Positions 4,009-63,844 of a stretch of 64,000 nt of DNA are shown here, piece after piece. The position numbers and the translations under genes were made by a program. Below the pieces are notes generated by a model. It saw only the letters and a list, made by a program, of their open reading frames with translations. It made no database searches and was not told the origin of the DNA. The stretch is from the NCBI GenBank assembly GCA_964479735.1, contig CAYZNT010000009.1, positions 41,349-105,348 on the forward strand, in the 5' to 3' direction. The stretch is from an uncultured Clostridia bacterium. Lineage in GTDB: Bacteria; Acidobacteriota; Aminicenantia; UBA2199. Numbering within the stretch: position 1 is the first letter of the stretch; every line of letters starts with the position of its first letter.

Positions 4009-4082
4009 AGGCGCGTAGCCCAGTTGGTTAGAGCGCTACCTTGACACGGTAGAGGTCGGCGGTTCGAGCCCGCCCGCGCCTA
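4009..4082 (+). tRNA. tRNA-Val (anticodon GAC)
   Basis: Manual cloverleaf. Acceptor is AGGCGCG/CGCGCCT. D-arm is GCCC-AGTTGGTTA-GAGC. Anticodon stem CTACC/GGTAG has loop TTGACAC. T-arm is GGCGG-TTCGAGC-CCGCC. Discriminator is A. CCA is not encoded. Confidence 0.85.
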
Positions 4083-51344: not shown

Positions 51345-52487
51345 GTGAGCGACCACGCCAGCAACCTGATCCTGAGCCGGGGGGCCAGCCGCCTGCGGCG
51401 GCTGGCCTCGCTGGCCGCCCGCGGCTTCCTGCTGGCCGTGACCGCCGCCTCCATGGTGGCGGTGCTGCTGATCATCGTCTACATCGCCCGCGACGCCATC
51501 CCCTTCTTCAAGCTGCGCGGGGTGGGCGAGTTCCTCGGCCGCAACGCCTGGTATCCCTCCGGGCACCCCGCCGAATTCGGGGCGCTGGCCATCTTCGCCG
51601 GCAGCGCCATCGTCACCCTGGGGGCCATGGCGGTGGCCGTGCCGCTGGGCATCGCCGCCGCCCTCTGCCTGAGCGACGTCCTGCCCTTCTCCGTGCGCCA
51701 GGTGGTCAAGCCGGTCGTCGAAACCCTGGCCGCCCTGCCCTCGGTGGCCTACGGCTTCTTCGCCCTGGTCGTCTTCGCCCCGTTGCTGCAGAACCACGGC
51801 GGACGGGTGTTGTCCCTGATGCTGTGGCTGGCCGGGCTCCCGCTCGGCCTGCTGCTGATCTACGTGTTGTCGGGGCTGTCGGCGCGCGGAGTGCGCGAGG
51901 ACGTGGCCCCGGCGGTCAAGTGGACGATGGCCGCCGTGCTGACGGCCGCCTTGCTGCGCGGCCTGGCGGTGCTGGGCGGGCGCCTCGACAGCCTGGTCAT
52001 CGCCTCGGGCGCCAACGCCTTCAACGTGTCGGTCATCCTGGGCGTCATGGCCCTGCCGACCATCGTCTCCGTATCGGAGGACGCCCTGCAGGCGGCCGGC
52101 CGCGAGCTGCGGGAGGGATCCTATGCGCTGGGCGCCACCCGGGCCGAGACCCTCTTCCGGGTCGTCATTCCGGCCGCTTCCAGCGGCATCGTCGCCGCCG
52201 TTATCCTGGGGGTCATGCGCGCCGTGGGCGAGACCATGGTGGTGTGGATGGCCTCGGGCAACGCCGCCCAGCTGCCCCAGCCCTGGTACAACCTGTTCAG
52301 CCCGGTGCGCACCCTGACCGCCACCATCGCCGGCGACATGGGAGAGGCCGACCAGGTGACCGGGTCGGCCCGCTACCACGTGCTGTTCGCCATGGCCCTG
52401 CTGCTGCTGCTGATCTCGCTGGCGGCCAACCTGGCCTCGGAATGGATCGTGCGCCGGCAGCGCCGGCGGCTCTCGGGACGGAGCTGA
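51345..52487 (+). CDS. pstC: Phosphate ABC transporter permease PstC (copy 1)
   Basis: Multi-TM protein with the EAA-like loop (LGATRAETLFRVVIPAA), 380 aa. Probable GTG start. Confidence 0.88.
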   Translation: MSDHASNLILSRGASRLRRLASLAARGFLLAVTAASMVAVLLIIVYIARDAIPFFKLRGVGEFLGRNAWYPSGHPAEFGALAIFAGSAIVTLGAMAVAVPLGIAAALCLSDVLPFSVRQVVKPVVETLAALPSVAYGFFALVVFAPLLQNHGGRVLSLMLWLAGLPLGLLLIYVLSGLSARGVREDVAPAVKWTMAAVLTAALLRGLAVLGGRLDSLVIASGANAFNVSVILGVMALPTIVSVSEDALQAAGRELREGSYALGATRAETLFRVVIPAASSGIVAAVILGVMRAVGETMVVWMASGNAAQLPQPWYNLFSPVRTLTATIAGDMGEADQVTGSARYHVLFAMALLLLLISLAANLASEWIVRRQRRRLSGRS

Positions 52488-52488
52488 C

Positions 52489-53835
52489 ATGGACCTGAAG
52501 ACCCGCCACTCCCTGGATCGCTCGCTGACCGGGGTCTCGGTGCTGGCCATCGTCCTGATGGCCCTGTCGCTGCTGGTGCTGCTGGGGCCGATCGTCGTCC
52601 GCGGCGCCCGCGCCTTCGTGTTCCGGGCCACGGTCGAGCACCGCCGGCTGATGGCCGAGCAGTTCGACCGCGGCGACCGCGCCGATCTGGCCGCCGAGGC
52701 GGCGATCGCGCTCCGGGCGCGCCAGCCGGTCTACGACATGCTGCAGCGGTTCGATGCCCAGTTGGACGAGATGGAGGGCTCCCGCCGCACCGCCCTGCGC
52801 CGCGAGTTCCGCGATGTGAAGGACGGGCTGCGCGCCCTGCTTGGTCCGTTGCCCGGCGACGACCCCCCGGTGCTGCTGCGCCAGCAGTACGGCCAGACCC
52901 GCTGGGACCGCGCCCGGGTGAAGCTCGGCCAGCTGCTCTTCGTCGAGCGCTGGGACTATTCCGACCGCAGCCGCATGGGCCGCAAGGTGCTGGAGCCCCG
53001 CCACCGGCTGTTCGCCGGCACCGCCCTCGAGCCGCTCTTCCCCCACCTGGAGAAGCACCTGGCGGAGATGCTCCGACCGCGGCTGACTTTCTACTGGCGC
53101 TTCATCAGCGACGTCTCTCGCGACGCCCACTTCTTCGGCGGCATCGGCCCGGAGGTGCTGGGCACCTTCTACCTGGCCCTGGGAGCGATGATCTTCGCCA
53201 TCCCCTTCGGGGTCATCGCCGCCATCTACCTCAGCGAATTCGCCGGCAGCGGCCGGCTGGTCTCCCTGCTGCGCGTCTTCGTCTCCACCCTGGCCGGGGT
53301 GCCGAGCATCGTCTTCGGGCTGTTCGGGCTGGCCTTCTTCATCCACTCCCTGCGCGTTTCGCCCTCCAAGAGCGTCCTGGCCGGCTCCATCACCCTGGCC
53401 CTGCTGGTCTTGCCGACCATCATCCGCGCGGCGGAGGAGGCCATCAAGGCCGTGCCCCAGACCTATCGCGAGGCGGCACTGAGCCTGGGCGCCTCCCCGC
53501 TGCGCATGGTGCTGACGGTGCTGCTGCCGGCGGCGCTGCCGGGCATTTTGACCGGGGTGATCATCTCCCTGGGCCGGGCCGCCGGCGAGACGGCGCCGAT
53601 CATCTTCACCGCCGCGGTCTCCGTGGGCAACCCGCTGCGGCTGTGGGAAACGCTTTCGCAGCCGACCCCGGCGCTGTCCTGGAACATCTACAACCTGGCC
53701 ACCGAGCACGAGGCCCTCGACGAGATCCGCCACGTGCAGTTCGGAATGGTGCTGACCCTGGTGCTGCTGGTGCTGCTCCTCAACCTGGCGGCCATCCTGA
53801 TCCGCGCCCGGCTATCCAGAAAAATGAGAGGCTGA
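52489..53835 (+). CDS. pstA: Phosphate ABC transporter permease PstA (copy 1), with an about 165-aa extracytoplasmic insertion after TM1
   Basis: 448 aa versus about 290 for canonical PstA. The C-terminal 280 aa align with PstA ([29 protein letters not shown]). Confidence 0.85.
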
Positions 53836-53837
53836 CG

Positions 53838-54659
<822 letters not shown>

Positions 54660-54670
54660 GGAGGCACCCC

Positions 54671-55330
54671 ATGGTCCTGCACCTGCACCGGGAGATCGAG
54701 AAACTGAAGAAGCAGATCGCGCTGCTGGCCGGCATGGTCGAAAAGCGCGTGGCCGACGCCGTGCGGGCCGCCGAGACCGATGACTTTTGCCTGGCCGAAC
54801 GCGTCCGGGAGGGAGACGCCGACATCGACCGAACCGAGGTGGAGGTGGAGGAGGAGTGCCTCAAGGTGCTGGCCCTGCACCAGCCGGTGGCCATCGACCT
54901 GCGCTTCATCGTCGCCGTGCTCAAGATCAACGGCGACCTGGAGCGCATCGGCGACGAGGCGGTCAACATCGCCGGCCGCGCCCTGCGCATCCACGACTTC
55001 CCGCGGCCGGAGTGCCGGCTCGAACTGGCCCCCCTGGCCGCGCGCGTTCAGCAGATGCTGAAGGACAGCCTCGACGCCCTGGTCAACATGGACGCCTCCC
55101 GCGCCCACATCGTGCGCCAGGCCGACGACGACGTCGACGAACTGGTGCGGCGACAGTTCGAGCGGGTGAAGGCCAGCATGCAGGTGCATCCCGACCAGGT
55201 CGACCCGCTGGTCGAGTATCTGCGCATCTTCCGCTACCTCGAGCGCATCGCGGACCACGCCACCAACATCGCCGAGGACGTCCTTTACATGGTCGAGGGC
55301 GAGATCGTGCGCCACAAGGAAGAGGCCTAA
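54671..55330 (+). CDS. phoU: Phosphate signalling complex protein PhoU (copy 1)
   Basis: 219 aa with two PhoU repeats (E(x)xxD motifs). Confidence 0.9.
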   Translation: MVLHLHREIEKLKKQIALLAGMVEKRVADAVRAAETDDFCLAERVREGDADIDRTEVEVEEECLKVLALHQPVAIDLRFIVAVLKINGDLERIGDEAVNIAGRALRIHDFPRPECRLELAPLAARVQQMLKDSLDALVNMDASRAHIVRQADDDVDELVRRQFERVKASMQVHPDQVDPLVEYLRIFRYLERIADHATNIAEDVLYMVEGEIVRHKEEA

Positions 55331-55538: not shown

Positions 55539-56729
55539 ATGAGCCTGCATGCCATCCCCATCGCCTACGTGGCTGTCCTCAGTCTTTCGCTGCTGGTGCT
55601 GGGCGCATACACCGGGCTGACCGCGGCCTTTCGCCGCGGCCGCCGGGTACGTCTGCCGCTGAACCAGCAGTCCTACCCGCGTGTCTCCATACTCAAGCCG
55701 CTGCGCGGGGTGGACGACGACCTGGAATCCAACCTGGAGTCCCTCTTCCGCCTGGACTATCCCGATTACGAAATCCTGTTCGCCGTCGACGCCCCGGACT
55801 GCGCCGAGGCGGTCACGGCGCGAACGGTGGGCGGCCGGCACCCCGGCGTCTCCTGCCGCATCGCGGTCACCGGCCACGACTCCGACCGCAATCCGAAGAT
55901 CCACAAGCTGGAGGCGCTGGAGTCACGGGCGAGCGGTGAATTCTTCTGGATCAGCGACGCCAACGTCCGGGTGGCGCCGGACACCCTGAAACGGCTGGTG
56001 GCCGAGTGCCTGAGCCACGGCGCCAAGATCGTTTTCTCGCCCATCCGCGCGACCGGCAGCCGCACCCTGGGGGCGGTCATCGAGAACGCCTACATCAATT
56101 TTTTCATGTCCGGCAACGTCCTGCTGGCATGGACCCTGCTGCGCCAGCAGATCAGCATCGGCAAGTCGATCCTGCTCGAGCGCCGGGCCCTGGAGCGGTT
56201 CGGCGGCTTTGCCTACTTCCGCGACCACCTGGCGGAGGATTTCGTCATGAGCGAGTCGTTCGAGTCCAGCCGCTTCCGCGTATCCAGCAATTTCACCTGG
56301 GTGACCACCGTCAACCGGCGCACCTCCGTGCGCGGCTTCTACCAGCGCCTGGCACGCTGGGCCGTGCTGCGCTTCCGCCTGAAGCCGGCCGTGTACCTGC
56401 TGGAGGTGCTGATCAACCCGTTGGCGCTGGCGATGCCGGCGCCGCTGCTGTGGGGCCGGACCGGCATGCATCTGCTGCTGGGCGCCTTCCTGATCCGGAC
56501 GACGGTCGAGTACGTCAACTTTCTGCTTCTCAACAGCGAGGACCGGCGCCGGATCTGGATCCACCTGGCCTTCCCCGCGGCCATGGTCCTGCAGGATCTC
56601 GTGCTGCTGGCCGTCTACCTGACCCCCTTTTTCCGGCGCACGGTGAACTGGCGGGGCGGCCGAATCACCGTCGGTCGGCACACCCTGATCGCCAACGCCC
56701 AGGACAGCCTGCTCTGCGATGGCGCCTGA
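55539..56729 (+). CDS. GT2/GT21-family glycosyltransferase (ceramide glucosyltransferase-like; Pgt-like processive glycolipid synthase candidate)
   Basis: N-terminal TM, ILKPLRGVDDDLESNLESLFRLDYPDYEILFAVD, DxD-type motifs, the C-terminal QRLARW ((Q/R)xxRW) motif, and multiple C-terminal TM helices. Confidence 0.7.
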   Translation: MSLHAIPIAYVAVLSLSLLVLGAYTGLTAAFRRGRRVRLPLNQQSYPRVSILKPLRGVDDDLESNLESLFRLDYPDYEILFAVDAPDCAEAVTARTVGGRHPGVSCRIAVTGHDSDRNPKIHKLEALESRASGEFFWISDANVRVAPDTLKRLVAECLSHGAKIVFSPIRATGSRTLGAVIENAYINFFMSGNVLLAWTLLRQQISIGKSILLERRALERFGGFAYFRDHLAEDFVMSESFESSRFRVSSNFTWVTTVNRRTSVRGFYQRLARWAVLRFRLKPAVYLLEVLINPLALAMPAPLLWGRTGMHLLLGAFLIRTTVEYVNFLLLNSEDRRRIWIHLAFPAAMVLQDLVLLAVYLTPFFRRTVNWRGGRITVGRHTLIANAQDSLLCDGA

Positions 56730-58095
56730 GAACCGCGTTCCGGCCGGCGACCGCCGCGAGCGCCCGGGCTCGGCCTGGGTGGTTTCCCTGCTGATGGGGC
56801 TCGGCCACCAGAGGGCCGCCTACCCGCTGCGCGATTCCGCCGTGGGCGGGGTGCTGGTCTACGGCTCGCGGCGCACCACCCCCCCGCAGGAGTACCGGTT
56901 GTGGCGGAGGATCCGCCGGCTCTACTACATCTCGTCGCGGGCCGGGCGCATCCCGCTGGTGGGGAAGTACCTCCTGGCGGTGCTGCTCGCGCTGGAGCAC
57001 ATCCGGCCCTATTACCCGCGGCGGGACCAGGCCCGCCCCAACCGGGCCGCGCGCACCCTCGACTGGATGATCCGCCGCCGCGGCCTTTGCGAGGGCCTGG
57101 TCCAGCGGGTCGCCCAACGACCGTTGCCGGTGGTGCACACCTTCTATGCCACCGCCATCGCCCTCGATCGCGCGAACCTCGCCGGGGTGGTGAACTACCT
57201 GCTGATCTGCGACGCCGATTTCAACCGCGTCTGGGTGCCCCTCCATCCCGAGCGAAGCCGCCTGCGCTACCTCGCCCCCTGCACCCAGGTGGGCCTTCGC
57301 CTGCGCTCCTACGGGGTTCCCGCCGAGAATGTCTTCATGACCGGTTTTCCGCTGCCGAAGGAGAACATCGGCGACGAGCGGCGGCTGGAGATCCTGCGCG
57401 CCGACCTCTTCGAGCGGCTGCTGCGCCTCGACCCGCGGCGCAAGTTCTTCGCCTACCACCGCCATTCCGTCCAGCACTGGCTGGGGGGCGCCAGCGTGCC
57501 CCCGTCTGGGCCTGACCGGTTCACCGTGATGTTCGCCGTCGGCGGCGCGGGCGCCCAGGCGGAGATGGTCGAAGGCATCCTGGCCAGCCTCCGGACCCGC
57601 ATCCTGGCCGGCCGGGTCCGCCTGCTGCTGTCGGCCGGAATCCAGCGGCGCGTGTTCGAGCGGATGATGCGGGCGCTGCACGACCAGGGCCTCCAGGAGC
57701 AGCTGGGACAAGGCGTCGACATCCTTTTCGACACCGAGGTCGACGGCTACCTCGACAAGTTCAACCGGGCCCTGCGAAAAACCGACGTTTTGTGGACCAA
57801 GCCCAGCGAGCTCTCGTTCTACTGCGGCCTGGGCATCCCGATCCTGCTGGCACCATCCATCGGCACCCACGAGGAGCTGAACAAGCGCTGGCTGCAGGAG
57901 ATCCACGCCGGGATCAAGCCGCCCGGCCCGGTGGAATGCTGCCACGAGTGGCTCTTCGACCTGCGCGACAACGGGCGCCTGGCGGAGGCGGCCTGGGACG
58001 GATTCCTCAAGGCGCGCAAGCTCGGCACCTACCGCATCGCCGCCCTGCTCCGCGGCGAGCCCCTGCCGGACAGCATGTCGCCGCTGGAGCAGTGA
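56719..58095 (+). CDS. MGDG-synthase/UgtP-like glycosyltransferase (GT28-like) candidate
   Basis: N-terminal LLMGLGHQRAAYPL (the GxGH motif of the MGDG_synth domain) and a C-terminal GT-B-like region. Overlaps the upstream GT by 11 nt. Confidence 0.5.
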   Translation: MAPENRVPAGDRRERPGSAWVVSLLMGLGHQRAAYPLRDSAVGGVLVYGSRRTTPPQEYRLWRRIRRLYYISSRAGRIPLVGKYLLAVLLALEHIRPYYPRRDQARPNRAARTLDWMIRRRGLCEGLVQRVAQRPLPVVHTFYATAIALDRANLAGVVNYLLICDADFNRVWVPLHPERSRLRYLAPCTQVGLRLRSYGVPAENVFMTGFPLPKENIGDERRLEILRADLFERLLRLDPRRKFFAYHRHSVQHWLGGASVPPSGPDRFTVMFAVGGAGAQAEMVEGILASLRTRILAGRVRLLLSAGIQRRVFERMMRALHDQGLQEQLGQGVDILFDTEVDGYLDKFNRALRKTDVLWTKPSELSFYCGLGIPILLAPSIGTHEELNKRWLQEIHAGIKPPGPVECCHEWLFDLRDNGRLAEAAWDGFLKARKLGTYRIAALLRGEPLPDSMSPLEQ

Positions 58096-58205: not shown

Positions 58206-58865
58206 TCAGGCCTCTTCCGTGTGGCGCACGATCTCGCCCTCGATCATGTAGAGAACGTCCTCGGCGATGTTGGTGGCGTGGTCGGCGATGCGCTCGAGGT
58301 AGCGGAAGACGCGCATGTATTCGATGAGGATGTCGACCTGGTCGGGATGCTCCCGGATGCCGCTTTTGACGGCCTCGAAGCGGGCGTGGGCGAGCTCGTC
58401 GATCTCGTCGTCGGCCTGGCGCACCGCGTGGGCGCGGGCGGCGTCCAGGTTGACCAGGGCGTCGAGGCTCCCCTTGAGCATGCGCTGCACGCGCTCGGCC
58501 AGGGGGGCGAGGTCGATGGGGCTGGCGGGGGGGGGATAGGAGCGGATGCGCAGGGCGCGGCCGGCGATGTTGACCGCCTCGTCGCCGATGCGCTCCAGGT
58601 CGCCGTTGATCTTGAGCACGGCGACGATGAAGCGCAGGTCGATGGCCACCGGCTGGTGCAGGGCCAGCACCTTGAGGCACTCCTCCTCCACGTCCACCTC
58701 GGCCTGGTCGATGTCGCTGTCTCCCAGGCGCACGCGCTGGGCCAGCTCGCCGTCGCGCGTCTCGATGGCCCGCACGGAGTCGGCCACGCGGTGCTCGACC
58801 ATGCCGGCCAGCAGCACGATCTGCTTTTTCAACTTGTCGATTTCGCGGTGCAGGTGCAGGACCAT
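58206..58865 (-). CDS. phoU: PhoU (copy 2), about 85% identical in protein to copy 1 and in inverted orientation
   Basis: MVLHLHREIDKLKKQIVLLAGMVE..., 219 aa. GAGGAGG RBS is present. Confidence 0.9.
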   Translation of the reverse strand: MVLHLHREIDKLKKQIVLLAGMVEHRVADSVRAIETRDGELAQRVRLGDSDIDQAEVDVEEECLKVLALHQPVAIDLRFIVAVLKINGDLERIGDEAVNIAGRALRIRSYPPPASPIDLAPLAERVQRMLKGSLDALVNLDAARAHAVRQADDEIDELAHARFEAVKSGIREHPDQVDILIEYMRVFRYLERIADHATNIAEDVLYMIEGEIVRHTEEA

Positions 58866-58876
58866 GGGGGGCCTCC

Positions 58877-59635
58877 TCAGCCGAAGCGGCCGCTGATGTA
58901 GTTTTCGGTCAGTTGCTGCCGGGGGTGGGTGAAGATCTCGCCCGTCTCCCCGAACTCGACCAGCCGGCCCAGGTACATGAACCCGGTGTGGTCGGACGCG
59001 CGCGCCGCCTGCTGCATGTTGTGGGTGACGATGACGATGGTGTATTCCCTCTTGAGCTCCTGCATCAGCTCCTCGATGTGGGCCGTGGCGATCGGGTCCA
59101 GGGTGGAGCAGGGCTCGTCCAGGAGCAGGATCCGGGGCTTCAGCGGAAGCAGCCGGGCGATGCACAGCCGCTGCTGCTGCTCCAGCGACAGCTTGAGCGC
59201 CGACTCGCGCAGCCGGTCCTTCAGGTCGTCCCACAGCAGCACGCCGCGCAGCGAGCGTTCGACGATCTCGTCGTATTCCCGGCGCGCGGCCAGCTGGTGG
59301 ATCTCCAGCCCGAAGATGATGTTGTCCTGCACCGACAGCGGGAAGGGGTTGGGGCGCTGGAAGACCATGCCCACCCGCTCGCGGAGCTCCAGCAGGTCGG
59401 TGTCCGGGGCCAGGATGTCCACTCCGTCCATGAGCACGCGGCCGCTCGTGCGCACCCCGTCGATCAGGTCGTTCATGCGGTTGAAGACCCGGAGCAGCGT
59501 GCTCTTGCCGCAGCCGCTGGGGCCGATCAGCGCCGTCACCCGGCGGGTGGGAATGCGCAGCTCGACGTCGATGAGGGCCTGGAAATTCCCGTAGAACAGG
59601 TTGAGCGCCTGGGTTTCGATGGCGATGTCGTCCAT
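58877..59635 (-). CDS. pstB: PstB paralog 2a: intact Walker A/B, Q- and H-loops, but degenerate ABC signature (LSLEQ instead of LSGGQ)
   Basis: [46 protein letters not shown]. Confidence 0.88.
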   Translation of the reverse strand: MDDIAIETQALNLFYGNFQALIDVELRIPTRRVTALIGPSGCGKSTLLRVFNRMNDLIDGVRTSGRVLMDGVDILAPDTDLLELRERVGMVFQRPNPFPLSVQDNIIFGLEIHQLAARREYDEIVERSLRGVLLWDDLKDRLRESALKLSLEQQQRLCIARLLPLKPRILLLDEPCSTLDPIATAHIEELMQELKREYTIVIVTHNMQQAARASDHTGFMYLGRLVEFGETGEIFTHPRQQLTENYISGRFG

Positions 59636-59636
59636 G

Positions 59637-60404
59637 TCAGCCGAACTTCCCGGTGATGTAGTCGGAGGTGCGCGGGTCGCGGGGGGCGGTGAACATTTTC
59701 CCCGTCTGGTCCACCTCCACCATTTCGCCCATCAGGAAAAACGCCGTGCGGTCGCCGGTGCGCGCGGCCTGGGCCACGTGGTTGGTCACCAGCACGATGG
59801 TGTAGCGCCGCTTCAGCTCCAGCAGCGTCTCCTCGATGCGAGCCGTCGAGATCGGGTCGAGACCGGAGGTGGGCTCGTCGAACAGCAGCACCTCGGGTTC
59901 GCCGGCCAGGATGCGCGCCATGCACAACCGCTGCTGCTGGCCGCCGGAGAGGTTCATCGCCGGCGTGTGCAGGCGGTCCTTCACCTCCTCCCACAGGAAG
60001 GCGTCGCGCAGGGAGCGCTCCACCGCCTCGTCCAGCCGGCGGCGGTCGCGGACTCCCTGCATGCGCAGCCCGTAGACGATGTTCTCGAAGATGGAGATGG
60101 GCAGCGGAAAGGGGAGGGCGAAGACGATGCCGACGCGGCGCCGCAGCGCTTCGACCTCCAGGCTGCGGATGTCGGCTCCGTCCAGCTCGATGCGTCCTTC
60201 CTGGCGAAACGCGGGGTGCAGATCGTTGAGCCGGTTGAGGGCGTTCAGGAAGGAGGACTTGCCGGAGTTGGCCGGGCCGATGACGGTGAAGACCTCGTTG
60301 GCGCGGATCTCCAGCTCCAGGCCGCGCAGGGCGATGGTGTCGCCGAAGCGCAGCGTCAGGCCGCGGACGGCGATTTTGGGGGGGGTGGGGGGGCCGGCTA
60401 CCAT
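59637..60404 (-). CDS. PstB paralog 2b: intact signature LSGGQQQRL and Walker B, but Q-loop Gln replaced (VFALP) and H-loop shifted (VTNHV)
   Basis: [46 protein letters not shown]. Confidence 0.85.
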   Translation of the reverse strand: MVAGPPTPPKIAVRGLTLRFGDTIALRGLELEIRANEVFTVIGPANSGKSSFLNALNRLNDLHPAFRQEGRIELDGADIRSLEVEALRRRVGIVFALPFPLPISIFENIVYGLRMQGVRDRRRLDEAVERSLRDAFLWEEVKDRLHTPAMNLSGGQQQRLCMARILAGEPEVLLFDEPTSGLDPISTARIEETLLELKRRYTIVLVTNHVAQAARTGDRTAFFLMGEMVEVDQTGKMFTAPRDPRTSDYITGKFG

Positions 60405-61243
60405 TTTTTTCTCCGCCGGAAGCGGGAGCGCACGAGGATGGCGGCCAGGTTCAGCAGCAGCACCAGCGCCAGCAGGACCAGCGCCGTTCCGTAGCGGACG
60501 TCTTCGGCAATGCCGGGCACCTGGGTGGAGATGACGTAGAGATGGTAGGGCAGGGCCATCGTCTGGTCGAAGAGGGTTTGCGGCAGGCGCGGCAGGTAGA
60601 AGGCGGCGACGGTGAACAGGATCGGCGCGGTCTCCCCGGCGGCGCGGCCGAGGCCCAGGATGGTGCCGGTCAGGATCCCCGGCAGGGCGTGCGGCAGCAC
60701 CGAGTGGCGGACGGTCTGCCAGCGGCTGGCGCCCAGCGACAGCGAGACGAGCCGGAACGACTGCGGCACGCTCTCCAGCGCCTCGCGCGTCGAGGTGATG
60801 ATCACCGGCAGGATCATGATGCCCAGGGTCAGCGAGCCGGCCAGGATCGACGCCCCGAAGCCGAAGAAGGTGACGAAGATGCCCAGGCCGAAGAGGCCGT
60901 ATACCACCGAGGGCACGCCGGCCAGGTTGACGATGGCCAGTTTCACCAGCCGGGACAACGCCGAGTCGCGGGAGTACTCCACCAGGTAGATGGCGGCCAG
61001 CACCCCGATCGGCACGGCGAAGAGCACCGCCCCGCTCACCAGGTAGAGCGTACCCAGGATGGCCGGAAGGATGCCGCCGGCGGTCATGCCGGCGCGGGGC
61101 ATGGTGAAGAGGAAGGACAAGCTGATGGCGCTGGCGCCCTTGGCCACGATGATGCCCAGGATGACCAGCACCGGCAGCACCACCAGCAGGGTGGCCAGGA
61201 AGAGGATGGAGAAGGCGATGGCCTGGGTCGTGCGCGGGCTCAT
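60398..61243 (-). CDS. pstA: Phosphate ABC transporter permease PstA (copy 2, canonical length)
   Basis: About 281 aa, [40 protein letters not shown]. Confidence 0.88.
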   Translation of the reverse strand: MSPRTTQAIAFSILFLATLLVVLPVLVILGIIVAKGASAISLSFLFTMPRAGMTAGGILPAILGTLYLVSGAVLFAVPIGVLAAIYLVEYSRDSALSRLVKLAIVNLAGVPSVVYGLFGLGIFVTFFGFGASILAGSLTLGIMILPVIITSTREALESVPQSFRLVSLSLGASRWQTVRHSVLPHALPGILTGTILGLGRAAGETAPILFTVAAFYLPRLPQTLFDQTMALPYHLYVISTQVPGIAEDVRYGTALVLLALVLLLNLAAILVRSRFRRRKKW

Positions 61244-61245
61244 GG

Positions 61246-62124
61246 TCACCTGCGGGAGCGGTGCAGGTAGAGGTCGGCCACGCCGTTGACCAGGAAAGTG
61301 ATGACGAACAGCACGATGCCGATGGCGAACAGGGCGGCGTAGTGGGGGCCGCCCTGCACCGACTCGCCCATCTCGGCGGCGATGGTGGCGGTCAGGGTGC
61401 GCACCGGCTGCAGGATGCTGCGCGGCATCAGGGCGGCATTGCCGGTGACCATCATCACCGCCATGGTCTCGCCGATCACCCGGCCGATGCCCAGCATCAC
61501 CGCCGCCACCATGCCGGGGCGGGCGGCGCGGGCCACAATGCGCCAGGTGGTCTGCCACCGGGTGGCGCCCATGGCCACGGCGGCCTCGCGGTACTGGCGG
61601 GGGACGGCGGTGATGGCGTCCTCGGCGATGGAGACGATGGTCGGCATGGCCATGAAGGCCAGGGTGATCGAGCCGGTGAGGGCGGTGAGGCCGGTGGGCA
61701 GCTGGAAGAGTTCCCGGATCCACGGCCCCAGGGTGATCATGCCGATGAAGCCGATGACCACGGAGGGGATCGCCGCCAGCAGCTCGATGCCCGCCTTGAG
61801 CGTCTCCTTGAGCCTCGGCGGGGCGATCTCGGCGATGAACAGGGCGGCGGCGATGCCGATGGGAACCGACAGGGCGGCCGCCCCCAGGGTGACCAGCAGC
61901 GAGCCGACGATGAGCGGCAGGATGCCGAACCGGGGCGGGTGGGAAATGGGATACCAGCTGGTGCCGAAGAGGAAGTCACCCACCCCCTCGTGGCCGAAGA
62001 GGGCCAGCCCCTCGCGCAACAGGAAGAGGAAGATGAGCAGCACGAAGACGATGGAGAAGACGCCGGAGAGGAGAATGGCCTTCTCGACCAGCCACTCCCT
62101 CGGTTTGCGCGGCAGCAGCCCCAT
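61246..62124 (-). CDS. pstC: Phosphate ABC transporter permease PstC (copy 2)
   Basis: 292 aa, AMGATRWQTTWRIVARAARPG. Confidence 0.88.
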   Translation of the reverse strand: MGLLPRKPREWLVEKAILLSGVFSIVFVLLIFLFLLREGLALFGHEGVGDFLFGTSWYPISHPPRFGILPLIVGSLLVTLGAAALSVPIGIAAALFIAEIAPPRLKETLKAGIELLAAIPSVVIGFIGMITLGPWIRELFQLPTGLTALTGSITLAFMAMPTIVSIAEDAITAVPRQYREAAVAMGATRWQTTWRIVARAARPGMVAAVMLGIGRVIGETMAVMMVTGNAALMPRSILQPVRTLTATIAAEMGESVQGGPHYAALFAIGIVLFVITFLVNGVADLYLHRSRR

Positions 62125-62137
62125 CGCTCCGCGGCCC

Positions 62138-63010
62138 CTACCGGCGCACGGGCACGAAATCGAGCTCGCCCACCAGCTTCTGCCCCTCGGGGGAGAGGAC
62201 GAAATCGAGGAACTGCGCCGTCAGGCCGTGAGGCTGGCCCTTGGATACCATCAGCAGCGGCCGGGAGATCGGGTAGCTCTTGTTGATGACGTTTTCCAGG
62301 GTGGGGGCGACGTGGGGCGCGCCGGGCTCCAGGGAGACGTGCAGGGCTTTTTGCCGGGGGCTGATGTACCCCATTCCGTAGTAGCCGATCGCCCCGGGGT
62401 TTTGCGCCACCTCGTCGGCGATGGCCTGGGAACTGGGCAGCATCAGGGCGCCGGGAGCGAACTCCTCCTTGCCGTCGGCCCGGCCATGGCGCAGCACGTG
62501 CTCCTTGAAATAGAGGTGGGTGCCGGAGTTGACCTCGCGCGACAAGACCACGATCTGCCGGTCGGCGCCGCCGACGTCCTTCCAGTTGGTGATGGCGCCG
62601 GAGAAGATCTGCGCCAGCTGGCCCATGGTCAGCTCCGACACGGGGTTGGCGGGGTGGACCACCACGGCCAGGCCGTCGAGCGCCACCTCCAGCTGCTTCG
62701 GCTCGATGCCGTTCTTGCGGGCCATGGCGATCTCGTCGGGCTTCATGTCGCGGGACAATTCGGCGATGTCGCAGGACCCGGCGATGAGGGAGGCAATGCC
62801 GGTGCCCGAGCCGCCGCCGGTGACGGCCACCGACAGGTCGGGGTGCTTCTGCATGAAGGCCTCGGCCCACGCCTGGCCCAGGTTGACCATGGTGTCCGAG
62901 CCCTTGATCTGGATCGAGGTGGCGACGTCTCCCCGGCGGCCGCAGCCGGCGGCGGCCAGGGAGGCGGTGGCGAGAAGCACCGCCAGGGTGAACCGTCCGT
63001 TCCTTTTCAT
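62138..63010 (-). CDS. pstS: Phosphate-binding protein PstS (copy 2, lipoprotein form)
   Basis: Lipobox LAAAGCG, IKGSDTMVNLGQAWAE, SREVNSGTH, about 290 aa. Confidence 0.88.
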   Translation of the reverse strand: MKRNGRFTLAVLLATASLAAAGCGRRGDVATSIQIKGSDTMVNLGQAWAEAFMQKHPDLSVAVTGGGSGTGIASLIAGSCDIAELSRDMKPDEIAMARKNGIEPKQLEVALDGLAVVVHPANPVSELTMGQLAQIFSGAITNWKDVGGADRQIVVLSREVNSGTHLYFKEHVLRHGRADGKEEFAPGALMLPSSQAIADEVAQNPGAIGYYGMGYISPRQKALHVSLEPGAPHVAPTLENVINKSYPISRPLLMVSKGQPHGLTAQFLDFVLSPEGQKLVGELDFVPVRR

Positions 63011-63054
63011 GCGCAGGCTCCTTGTTCGGGAAATTCTGGAAGTCAATCTGGAAT

Positions 63055-63199: not shown

Positions 63200-63844
63200 A
63201 TGTTCAAATTCCTGTTGCCCAAAGAAGAGCAGTTCTTCGAGTTGTTCGACAGGATGGGCGCCAACCTCGTCGAAGGCGTGCAACTGCTCAACCAGATGCT
63301 CGACCCCGGCGCGCCCGCCTGCACGCCCCAGGGCCGAAGCGAGCTGGCCCTGCGGGTGAAGACGATCGAGCACCAGACCGACGGCGTGGCCCACCAGATC
63401 ATCTCCCGGCTGCACAAGACCTTCGTCACCCCCATCGACCGCGAGGACATCTTCCACCTGGTCGGCCGGCTCGACGACGTGCTCGACCTGACCGAGGGCG
63501 CCGCCTCGCGCATCGAGCTCTACCAGCCCAAGGAAGTGCCGCACGAATCGGTGGAGCTGGGCAAGGTGCTGCTGGAGAGCGCCCGCCTGGTGCAGGACAT
63601 GGTCCACCTGCTGAGCGACATGAAGAAATCGGCCCGCATCCTGGAACTGGCGGTGGAGATCAACCGCCTGGAGCACGAGGCCGACCTGCTTCGCCGCGGC
63701 ACCCTGGCGCGGCTTTTCCGGGAGGAAAAGGACGTATTCGAGCTGATCAAGTGGAAGGACATCCAGGAATACATGGAAAAGGCCACCGACCGGTGCGAGG
63801 ACGTGGCCAACATCACCGAGGGCATCGTGCTGGAAAACACCTGA
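63200..63844 (+). CDS. DUF47 family protein (PhoU-like regulator typically paired with Pit; TIGR00153-like)
   Basis: 214 aa helical protein immediately upstream of pit. Confidence 0.8.
   Translation: MFKFLLPKEEQFFELFDRMGANLVEGVQLLNQMLDPGAPACTPQGRSELALRVKTIEHQTDGVAHQIISRLHKTFVTPIDREDIFHLVGRLDDVLDLTEGAASRIELYQPKEVPHESVELGKVLLESARLVQDMVHLLSDMKKSARILELAVEINRLEHEADLLRRGTLARLFREEKDVFELIKWKDIQEYMEKATDRCEDVANITEGIVLENT

Follow-up and report, generated by a model that had tools for sequence, protein, structure and literature searches.

Complementary motif losses in tandem PstB paralogues point to an asymmetric ATPase in a second Pst phosphate importer

The window analysed here, a 64,000-nt stretch of contig CAYZNT010000009.1 from an uncultured bacterium, encodes two Pst phosphate importers, the second of which has two adjacent PstB ATPases, PstB2b and PstB2a (2b and 2a below). 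Judging from their sequences, these two proteins are likely to pair obligately as a heterodimer in which one ATP site is catalytic and the other degenerate, within a transporter of composition PstS2-PstC2-PstA2-PstB2b-PstB2a. Pst is the textbook example of high-affinity phosphate import and provides the sensor input to the Pho regulon; to our knowledge, its motor has always been regarded as a symmetric homodimer of PstB. All positions are window coordinates, and genes were assigned from a list of open reading frames and from matching against Pfam, NCBIfam and Rfam. Both reading frames were recovered exactly as given below, on the minus strand, and are listed with their motifs and with the PstB of the first Pst system.

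59637..60404, minus strand: pstB2b, 255 aa, degenerate nucleotide-binding core with an intact LSGGQ (open reading frame; alignments; TIGR00972 best match)
60255..60278, minus strand: 2b Walker A GPANSGKS, residues 43-50, Lys49 and Ser50 kept, inner residues unlike the invariant canonical GPSGCGKS
60117..60119, minus strand: 2b A96 at the position of the Q-loop Gln, VFALP versus canonical VFQKP (alignment)
59937..59951, minus strand: 2b signature LSGGQ (LSGGQQQR), residues 152-156, intact (sequence)
59781..59783, minus strand: 2b N208 in place of the H-loop His, VTNH versus canonical VTHN, next residue H209 (alignment)
58877..59635, minus strand: pstB2a, 252 aa, canonical nucleotide-binding core with a degenerate signature (open reading frame; alignments; TIGR00972 above cut-off)
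59501..59524, minus strand: 2a Walker A GPSGCGKS, residues 38-45, canonical (alignment)
59357..59359, minus strand: 2a Q93, Q-loop Gln kept, VFQRP (alignment)
59177..59191, minus strand: 2a signature LSLEQ, residues 149-153, degenerate, Gly to Leu at position 3 and Gly to Glu at position 4 (alignment)
59021..59023, minus strand: 2a H205, H-loop His kept, VTHN (alignment)
53838..54659, plus strand: pstB1, single fully canonical PstB, used as comparator (alignment; TIGR00972)

Motif positions were fixed by alignment of the window's three PstBs and by HMMER alignments to the solved E. coli PstB (PDB 9k3x_C). Both 2b and 2a matched the E. coli protein over the full length (E = 1e-72 and 3e-89, respectively), with no gaps through any of the motifs; identity was ~48% between 2a and 2b, and ~50% to the solved PstB, a level that leaves no doubt about the fold of the monomer. 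E. coli Q98 aligned with A96 of 2b, G156/G157 with L151/E152 of 2a, and H210 with N208 of 2b. An earlier note on this DNA, made from the letters alone, had read 2a as canonical in Walker A, Q-loop, Walker B and H-loop with an LSLEQ signature, and 2b as keeping LSGGQQQRL and Walker B while lacking the Q-loop Gln (VFALP). The gapless alignments uphold both descriptions, so the substitutions are not alignment artefacts; they also agree with its view that the first system's single PstB is fully canonical. The Walker B residues are D173-E174 in 2a and D176-E177 in 2b, where E177 is invariant among 2b-type relatives, and 2b has an aromatic A-loop residue.

The NCBIfam PstB equivalog model, TIGR00972, has a curated cut-off of 343.2 bits. 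PstB1 scored 394.1 bits and 2a passed with a full-length match of 362.9 bits; 2b failed at 314.7 bits, yet it matches this family far better than any other, and none of the other PstB models attains its respective cut-off. By these scores 2b is a divergent paralogue of the PstB clade and not an equivalog. No NCBIfam model specific for the 2a or the 2b subtype was found. Both genes are encoded in a pstS-pstC-pstA-...-phoU operon, as befits PstBs, in the window and in three long contigs of relatives (L084-L086), where the neighbours are supported by Pfam.

As the earlier note had stated, E. coli PstB is a homodimer, within PstSCAB (PDB 9k3x, 9k3y, 9k3s; PMC12976172). ATP is bound there between Walker A/B of one subunit and LSGGQ of the other (PMC12976172), and the geometry of such composite sites in dimers of ATP-binding cassette (ABC) proteins is reviewed in PMC7756269. 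In a head-to-tail 2a-2b dimer, with two different ATPase subunits serving one phosphate importer, site 1 would be a normal catalytic site composed of Walker A, Walker B, Q93 and H205 of 2a and the LSGGQ of 2b. Site 2 would be degenerate, being composed of Walker A, Walker B, A96 and N208 of 2b and the LSLEQ of 2a. It would keep the residues that bind Mg-ATP (K49, S50, D176, E177 and the aromatic A-loop residue) and would be without three gamma-phosphate or catalytic contacts. Because site 2 retains the former and loses the latter, ATP binding with little or no hydrolysis is expected there; most likely the bound nucleotide acts as a structural or regulatory 'glue' and is turned over little or not at all, and site 1 would drive the transport cycle, using about one ATP each time. 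That the two proteins associate physically, that site 2 binds ATP without hydrolysing it and how many ATPs are spent are what we infer from the motifs. In a homodimer of 2a, both sites would contain LSLEQ, and in one of 2b both would be without Gln and His, so only the heterodimer has one complete site.

What was observed directly is the state of the motifs and how far it is conserved, that the two genes are linked, and that purifying selection acts on each. Conservation was examined in the best 120 database matches each for 2b, for 2a and for a 2b query from the PVC group, with taxa given as database source names. The best 120 matches of 2b (72-85% identity; Acidobacteria, Aminicenantes, Chrysiogenia) had VFA[LM]P, with Ala replacing Gln, in 120/120 and G-x4-GK[ST] in all. 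LSGGQQQR was found in 119, and VTN in all but one, mostly within TNN and in a few cases within TNI. TNH occurred in just two, which indicates that the His at +1 is lineage-specific and the change a plain His to Asn replacement; the earlier note's 'shifted H-loop' (TNH) was therefore abandoned. Among the best 120 matches of 2a, Walker A, Q-loop, Walker B and H-loop were canonical, and the signature was LSLEQQQR in 113 and LSGEQQQR in three. The more distant PVC-group subfamily of 2b (Verrucomicrobia, Kiritimatiellota) had VTNN and LSGGQQQR in 120/120 each, and FA[LM]P, again with Ala at the Q-loop, in 118/120. Approximately 42 of the 120 entries in each of the 2a and 2b top lists had a longest contig of the same length as an entry of the other list; these homologues probably lie on the same contigs.

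A search of 50%-identity cluster representatives with the 2b profile returned mostly canonical PstBs, many with odd N-terminal extensions, and no family size can be derived from it. About ten further clusters had 2b-like motifs (VFATP, VFSVP, VFAVP or IFVLP, all with VTNN), and several had 2a-like signatures (LSAEQ, LSLGQ, LTEEQ, LSVGQ, LSIGQ). The variant PstB-like representatives were P0247, P0269, P0273, P0309, P0326, P0332, P0246, P0260, P0266, P0271 and P0297. From these sequences, the two subfamilies studied seem to cover only part of the diversity of the asymmetric PstB design.

The position of the two genes relative to each other was examined within the second pst operon of the window, which reads pstS2-pstC2-pstA2-pstB2b-pstB2a-phoU2 on the minus strand from 63046 to 58206. 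Its remaining genes are as follows.

62138..63046, minus strand: pstS2, periplasmic phosphate-binding protein (open reading frame; Pfam PBP_like_2, E = 1.3e-51; same place in the operons of relatives; start codon uncertain)
61246..62124, minus strand: pstC2, compact permease of 292 aa (open reading frame; Pfam BPD_transp_1; 292-300 aa in relatives)
60398..61243, minus strand: pstA2, permease of 281 aa (open reading frame; Pfam)
58206..58865, minus strand: phoU2, last gene of the operon (open reading frame; Pfam PhoU at the equivalent place in L084-L086)

The stop codon of pstA2 and the start codon of pstB2b overlap by 7 nt (ATGGTAG), the stop of pstB2b is separated from the start of pstB2a by a single nucleotide (TGAcATG), and a GGAGG ribosome-binding site follows directly after the pstB2a stop, ahead of phoU2. 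This spacing suggests that pstA2, pstB2b and pstB2a are translationally coupled. The identical pstS-pstC-pstA-2b-2a-phoU operon is found on contigs L084-L086, where the overlap of 7 nt and the spacer of 1 nt recur as well.

To these were added seven loci from genome contigs (L004-L010) and the PstB loci from a metagenome scan for DNA coding for VGIVFALP, giving, with the window, 31 loci in which both genes are visible. The scan of genome contigs with the 2b query was dominated by canonical PstBs, since its patterns are common to all PstBs, and among the matches listed only L004-L010 were of the 2b type; they derive from Omnitrophota, the PVC group, Desantisbacteria, Elusimicrobia, Planctomycetota and one unclassified metagenome-assembled genome (MAG). 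Overall, tandem loci were found in Omnitrophota, the PVC group, Desantisbacteria, Elusimicrobia, Planctomycetota, Chrysiogenia MAGs, a Bacteroidetes-labelled MAG and metagenomes; the closest Acidobacteria- and Aminicenantes-like genomes are absent from this set. The 2b-type gene lay immediately upstream of the 2a-type gene, on the same strand, in 31/31 loci showing both. Three 2b-type genes had no visible partner, and all three were truncated by contig ends. The earlier note had proposed a survey for tandems with the same complementary degeneracy, and the pattern recurs in all 31 of these loci.

Within these pairs, every element of the predicted consensus site was invariant: GPSGCGKS, VFQRP and VTH of 2a and LSGGQ of 2b were each present in 31/31. 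The 2b Q-loop position was Ala in 30/30 surveyed pairs and the 2b H-loop position Asn in 30/31. Elsewhere in the predicted degenerate site, the 2b Walker A was found in eight variants (GPANSGKT/S, GPAGSGKT, GPSNSGKT, GPSSSGKT, GPASSGKT, GPSGSGKT, GPTGGGKS), always with GK[ST], and the 2a signature also in eight (LSLEQ in 19 pairs, LPLDQ in three, LTLEQ in three, VSLEQ in two, and LPLEQ, LTLEE, LALDQ and FSLGQ), with Leu at position 3 in 31/31 and Glu or Asp at position 4 in 30/31. The elements of the degenerate site drift between lineages and those of the consensus site do not, which is the strongest argument for asymmetry. With 31 tandem loci and three sets of 120 homologues, the pattern is far beyond chance. 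The near-invariant Leu and the acidic residue after it, like the degenerate LNVEQ signature of Pdr5, a proven asymmetric ABC pump (PMC7756269), hint at an acquired role rather than simple loss.

Fixed differences specific to each family were scanned against 80 canonical PstBs. Those of 2b (S45A, C47S, M59L, M93I, Q96A, K97L, F101L, A181G in the D-loop, I205L and H208N) lie mostly in or beside Walker A, Q-loop, D-loop and H-loop. Those of 2a are mainly the signature changes G151L and G152E, together with the conservative K94R, V138L and S183A. When placed on the published dimer geometry (PMC12976172, PMC7756269), the non-canonical residues of both subunits fall into the same composite site, and the other site is canonical.

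Several points weigh against an obligate heterodimer whose site 2 is degenerate. In 2b the Walker A Lys is kept, and so is the Walker B Glu (E177 invariant), which many degenerate sites lose; slow ATP hydrolysis at site 2 might occur. In MRP1, NBD2 variants (NBD, nucleotide-binding domain) with the H-loop His replaced by Asn or Gln kept wild-type-like transport, so that N208 alone is no proof of inactivity (PMC7756269). The metagenome loci were chosen through a VFALP-coding pattern, and what they contribute independently is the state of the H-loop and the signature of the partner. In E. faecalis, excess PstB2 replaces PstB1, so tandem PstBs are not always obligate partners, though both are canonical there (PMC12096839). 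The retained Glu and Lys and the MRP1 variants, together with 2b K97L and F101L, which flank the Q-loop within the contact groove for the membrane subunit, would suit a functionally symmetric heterodimer, in which Ala, Asn and LSLEQ are tolerated, both sites hydrolyse ATP usefully and the divergence reflects docking to PstC versus PstA. We consider this unlikely. Three separate gamma-phosphate or catalytic contacts are lost, all in one composite site; its counterpart does not vary in any of the 31/31 pairs, and the drift between lineages is confined to the degenerate one; moreover, the change of Gly-Gly to Leu-Glu puts bulky and acidic side chains where backbone amides contact the gamma-phosphate (PMC7756269).

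Further observations were made on the pairs and on related loci. In the 31 loci, 2b GPAGSGKT or GPSGSGKT appeared to go with 2a L[PA]L[DE]Q, and GPxN/S-SGK[ST] with [LV][ST]LE[QE]. This covariation could reflect direct contact across the degenerate site, is confounded by phylogeny and was not used as evidence. An apparent intermediate was found at L170 (2695-4411, minus strand), where the upstream PstB has lost the Gln (VFALP), keeps the H-loop His (VPHS) and has Walker A GPTGGGKS, and the downstream partner has FSLGQ, with only the first Gly lost, and VTHS. In a Chloroflexia MAG (L046:4962-5771, plus strand), a single PstB of the 2b clade follows pstS-pstC-pstA with no second pstB downstream; it has VFSRP (Gln to Ser), Walker A GPAGGGKS, an intact LSGGQ and the His (APHN), and from its sequence would be a homodimer lacking only the Q-loop Gln. 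An adjacent pstB pair in an Ignavibacterium MAG (L016:4157-5744; ISGGQ/LSGGQ) and two nearby pstBs in a Thermoanaerobaculaceae MAG (L026:2761-5744; FSGGQ/LSGGQ) are essentially canonical, with Gln and His kept. By their motifs these resemble the Firmicute type, and a second pstB need not mean degeneracy.

The history of the two subunits was examined in a neighbour-joining tree of 31 2a-type, 36 2b-type and 80 canonical PstBs, in which the 2a-type and the 2b-type proteins each formed one clade. Pairwise distances of the partners correlated with r = 0.92 over 29 loci (Mantel test, 0/2000 permutations as high), and mean divergence was 0.35 versus 0.37 for the two partner types, i.e. the rates are similar. 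The median ratio of non-synonymous to synonymous substitution rates (dN/dS) was 0.11 for 2a and 0.095 for 2b, in 15 comparisons with unsaturated dS. Both subunits are under purifying selection. Adjacency in one operon at 31/31 loci, the coupled spacing and the correlated distances mark 2a and 2b as two non-identical NBDs of one transporter, and the homologue sets, the 31 loci, the dN/dS of ~0.1 and the monophyly of each type mark the degeneracy as fixed, not sporadic. Gene order, close spacing, the pattern of invariance, co-divergence and purifying selection strongly support the earlier note's proposal that complementary motifs make one consensus and one degenerate site.

These data leave practically no probability to the view that one gene is a decaying duplicate whose motif losses are neutral damage. 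It is ruled out by reading frames that are intact in nearly all relatives and by the dN/dS of ~0.1; in addition, the same substitutions are fixed across phyla, and each type is an old monophyletic clade. What speaks for decay is one metagenome relative (L139:208-1011, plus strand), the only surveyed 2b-type gene with an in-frame stop, which divides it into two reading frames of one phase, 208-609 and 613-1011; the 2a-type gene after it is intact. Sequencing error, a rare pseudogene or recoding could each account for this stop.

The same conservation bears on whether 2b could be an accessory or regulatory pseudo-ATPase, for example in phosphate signalling with PhoU and PhoR, with transport carried out by a 2a homodimer. 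There is precedent in E. faecalis, where the upstream PstB1 is merely accessory and the downstream PstB2 essential (PMC12096839), and phoU directly follows the pair. Two copies of 2a, however, would place LSLEQ in both sites, and the strict conservation of LSGGQ in 2b (31/31 pairs, 119/120 and 120/120 homologues) is sensible only if it completes the partner's active site. The 7-nt overlap of pstA with 2b and the 1-nt spacer between 2b and 2a suggest coupled, equimolar synthesis, and the correlation of partner distances likewise argues against an accessory role, which we regard as quite improbable.

A canonical pstB was found within ~5 kb of the pair in the window and at L006, L010, L105, L110 and L188. 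Such neighbours would allow interchangeable subunits, with 2a-2a, 2b-2b and 2a-2b dimers, possibly with PstB1 as well, giving transporters of graded activity, and overexpressed E. faecalis PstB2 does stand in for PstB1 (PMC12096839). Nevertheless, either homodimer would be defective at both of its sites, most loci have no canonical pstB nearby within the sequenced flanks examined, and free mixing would leave the strict complementarity unexplained. This makes interchange very improbable, and an obligate 2a-2b heterodimer remains our preferred interpretation.

The pair was compared with known systems. It shares with E. coli PstB the family, the fold (by sequence), the pstSCAB-phoU operon logic and composite ATP sites; there, one canonical subunit makes two equivalent sites, whereas here two complementary paralogues make one consensus site. 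Tandem PstBs are known from Firmicutes, with adjacent pstB genes in a pst operon and a presumed NBD pair, as in the window. In E. faecalis, the Walker A motif, the LSGGQ signature as well as the H-loop of PstB1 and PstB2 are reported to be identical to E. coli in both, and the 2025 paper on them states that tandem pstB paralogues had never been compared before (PMC12096839). The B. subtilis transporter has been modelled as PstBA-PstBB-PstC-PstA-PstS with a PstBA/PstBB heterodimer, with no mention of degeneracy (PMC11466899). The present pair differs from that of E. faecalis, where both are canonical and PstB2 can replace PstB1, in its fixed complementary degeneracy. Full-text searches of the open-access literature found no prior description of a degenerate PstB pair, in agreement with the earlier note.

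Heterodimeric or otherwise asymmetric ABC exporters with one degenerate site include TM287/288, TmrAB, BmrCD, TAP1/2, CFTR, MRP1 and Pdr5 (PMC7756269). Their NBDs are fused to membrane domains, whereas 2a and 2b are NBDs in their own right that belong to a type I importer dependent on a binding protein. The earlier note had called the asymmetry TAP/CFTR/Pdr5-type. The design with one degenerate site stands, as does the likeness of LSLEQ to LNVEQ of Pdr5, but the pattern is not exactly that of TAP or CFTR. The degenerate site of exporters (TAP1, TM287/288-type, CFTR NBD1) is usually without the Walker B Glu; in 2b that Glu is not replaced, E177 being invariant and DEP present in every tandem-locus relative. 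Judged by its motifs, the pair is a distinct flavour of degeneracy, with the Glu kept and the Gln and His lost. Among importers, PMC11466899 flags degenerate sites only in the fused NBDs of RbsA and NupO. These also have one of two ATP sites degenerate, but they belong to another family, their NBDs are fused and the second Walker A is without Lys, whereas 2a and 2b are separate genes with Lys in both.

The first Pst system of the window is complete as well, and contains the following genes besides pstB1.

51345-52487, plus strand: pstC1, encoding PstC1 of 380 aa
52489-53835, plus strand: pstA1, encoding PstA1 of 448 aa
54671-55330, plus strand: phoU1

The two pst-phoU operons are convergent (51345-55330 on the plus strand, 58206-63046 on the minus strand). 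System 1 combines long permeases (380 and 448 aa) with one canonical PstB, and system 2 compact permeases (292 and 281 aa) with the PstB pair. PhoU1 and PhoU2 are 79% identical, and pstB1-phoU1 and pstB2a-phoU2 share 79% nucleotide identity across 1.35 kb. Recent gene conversion between the operons was considered and rejected, since 79% is ordinary paralogue similarity in a genome of ~68% G+C. Between the operons (55539-58095, plus strand) lie two genes that overlap by 11 nt and have no evident connection to phosphate uptake; one encodes a family 21 glycosyltransferase (Pfam Glyco_transf_21, E = 3.6e-33), the other a DUF6938 protein. A PhoU_div/DUF47 gene (63200-63844, plus strand) is divergent from pstS2. 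In the relative L084, a PhoU_div gene and a PHO4 (PiT-type) phosphate permease lie just upstream of the same operon type, and by analogy a PiT gene may follow PhoU_div beyond the window end. The sole Rfam match in the window at the gathering threshold was a tRNA gene (4009-4082, plus strand).

More tentatively, and with somewhat less than an even chance in our estimate, the pairs may represent a widespread, so far unrecognised class of binding-protein-dependent type I ABC importer powered by just one catalytic ATP site, at a cost of about one ATP per cycle. The site formed by the core of 2b and the L-x-L-[E/D]-Q signature of 2a would stay occupied by nucleotide, or be latched by the conserved acidic residue of the signature, and PhoU/PhoR signalling might make use of the unique face of the NBD dimer that does not cycle. 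Such a class appears mainly in MAGs of little-cultured lineages, labelled Acidobacteria, Aminicenantes, Omnitrophota, Elusimicrobia, Planctomycetota, Verrucomicrobia and Kiritimatiellota, often beside a canonical Pst.

An ABC motor with one consensus site is well established in exporters; what would be new, going by the motifs, is its occurrence in a Pst type I importer and its distinct pattern of degeneracy. If true, the principle of the degenerate site would extend from exporters to a type I importer with free-standing NBDs, and the pair would be a natural test case for the number of ATPs needed per substrate and for what a non-hydrolytic site contributes. Annotation would at present lump three functionally different proteins under one name, with 2b below the TIGR00972 cut-off and without a model of its own. 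It would also raise the question of why a symmetric and an asymmetric Pst are kept side by side, for which energy economy, different kinetics or separate signalling are possible reasons.

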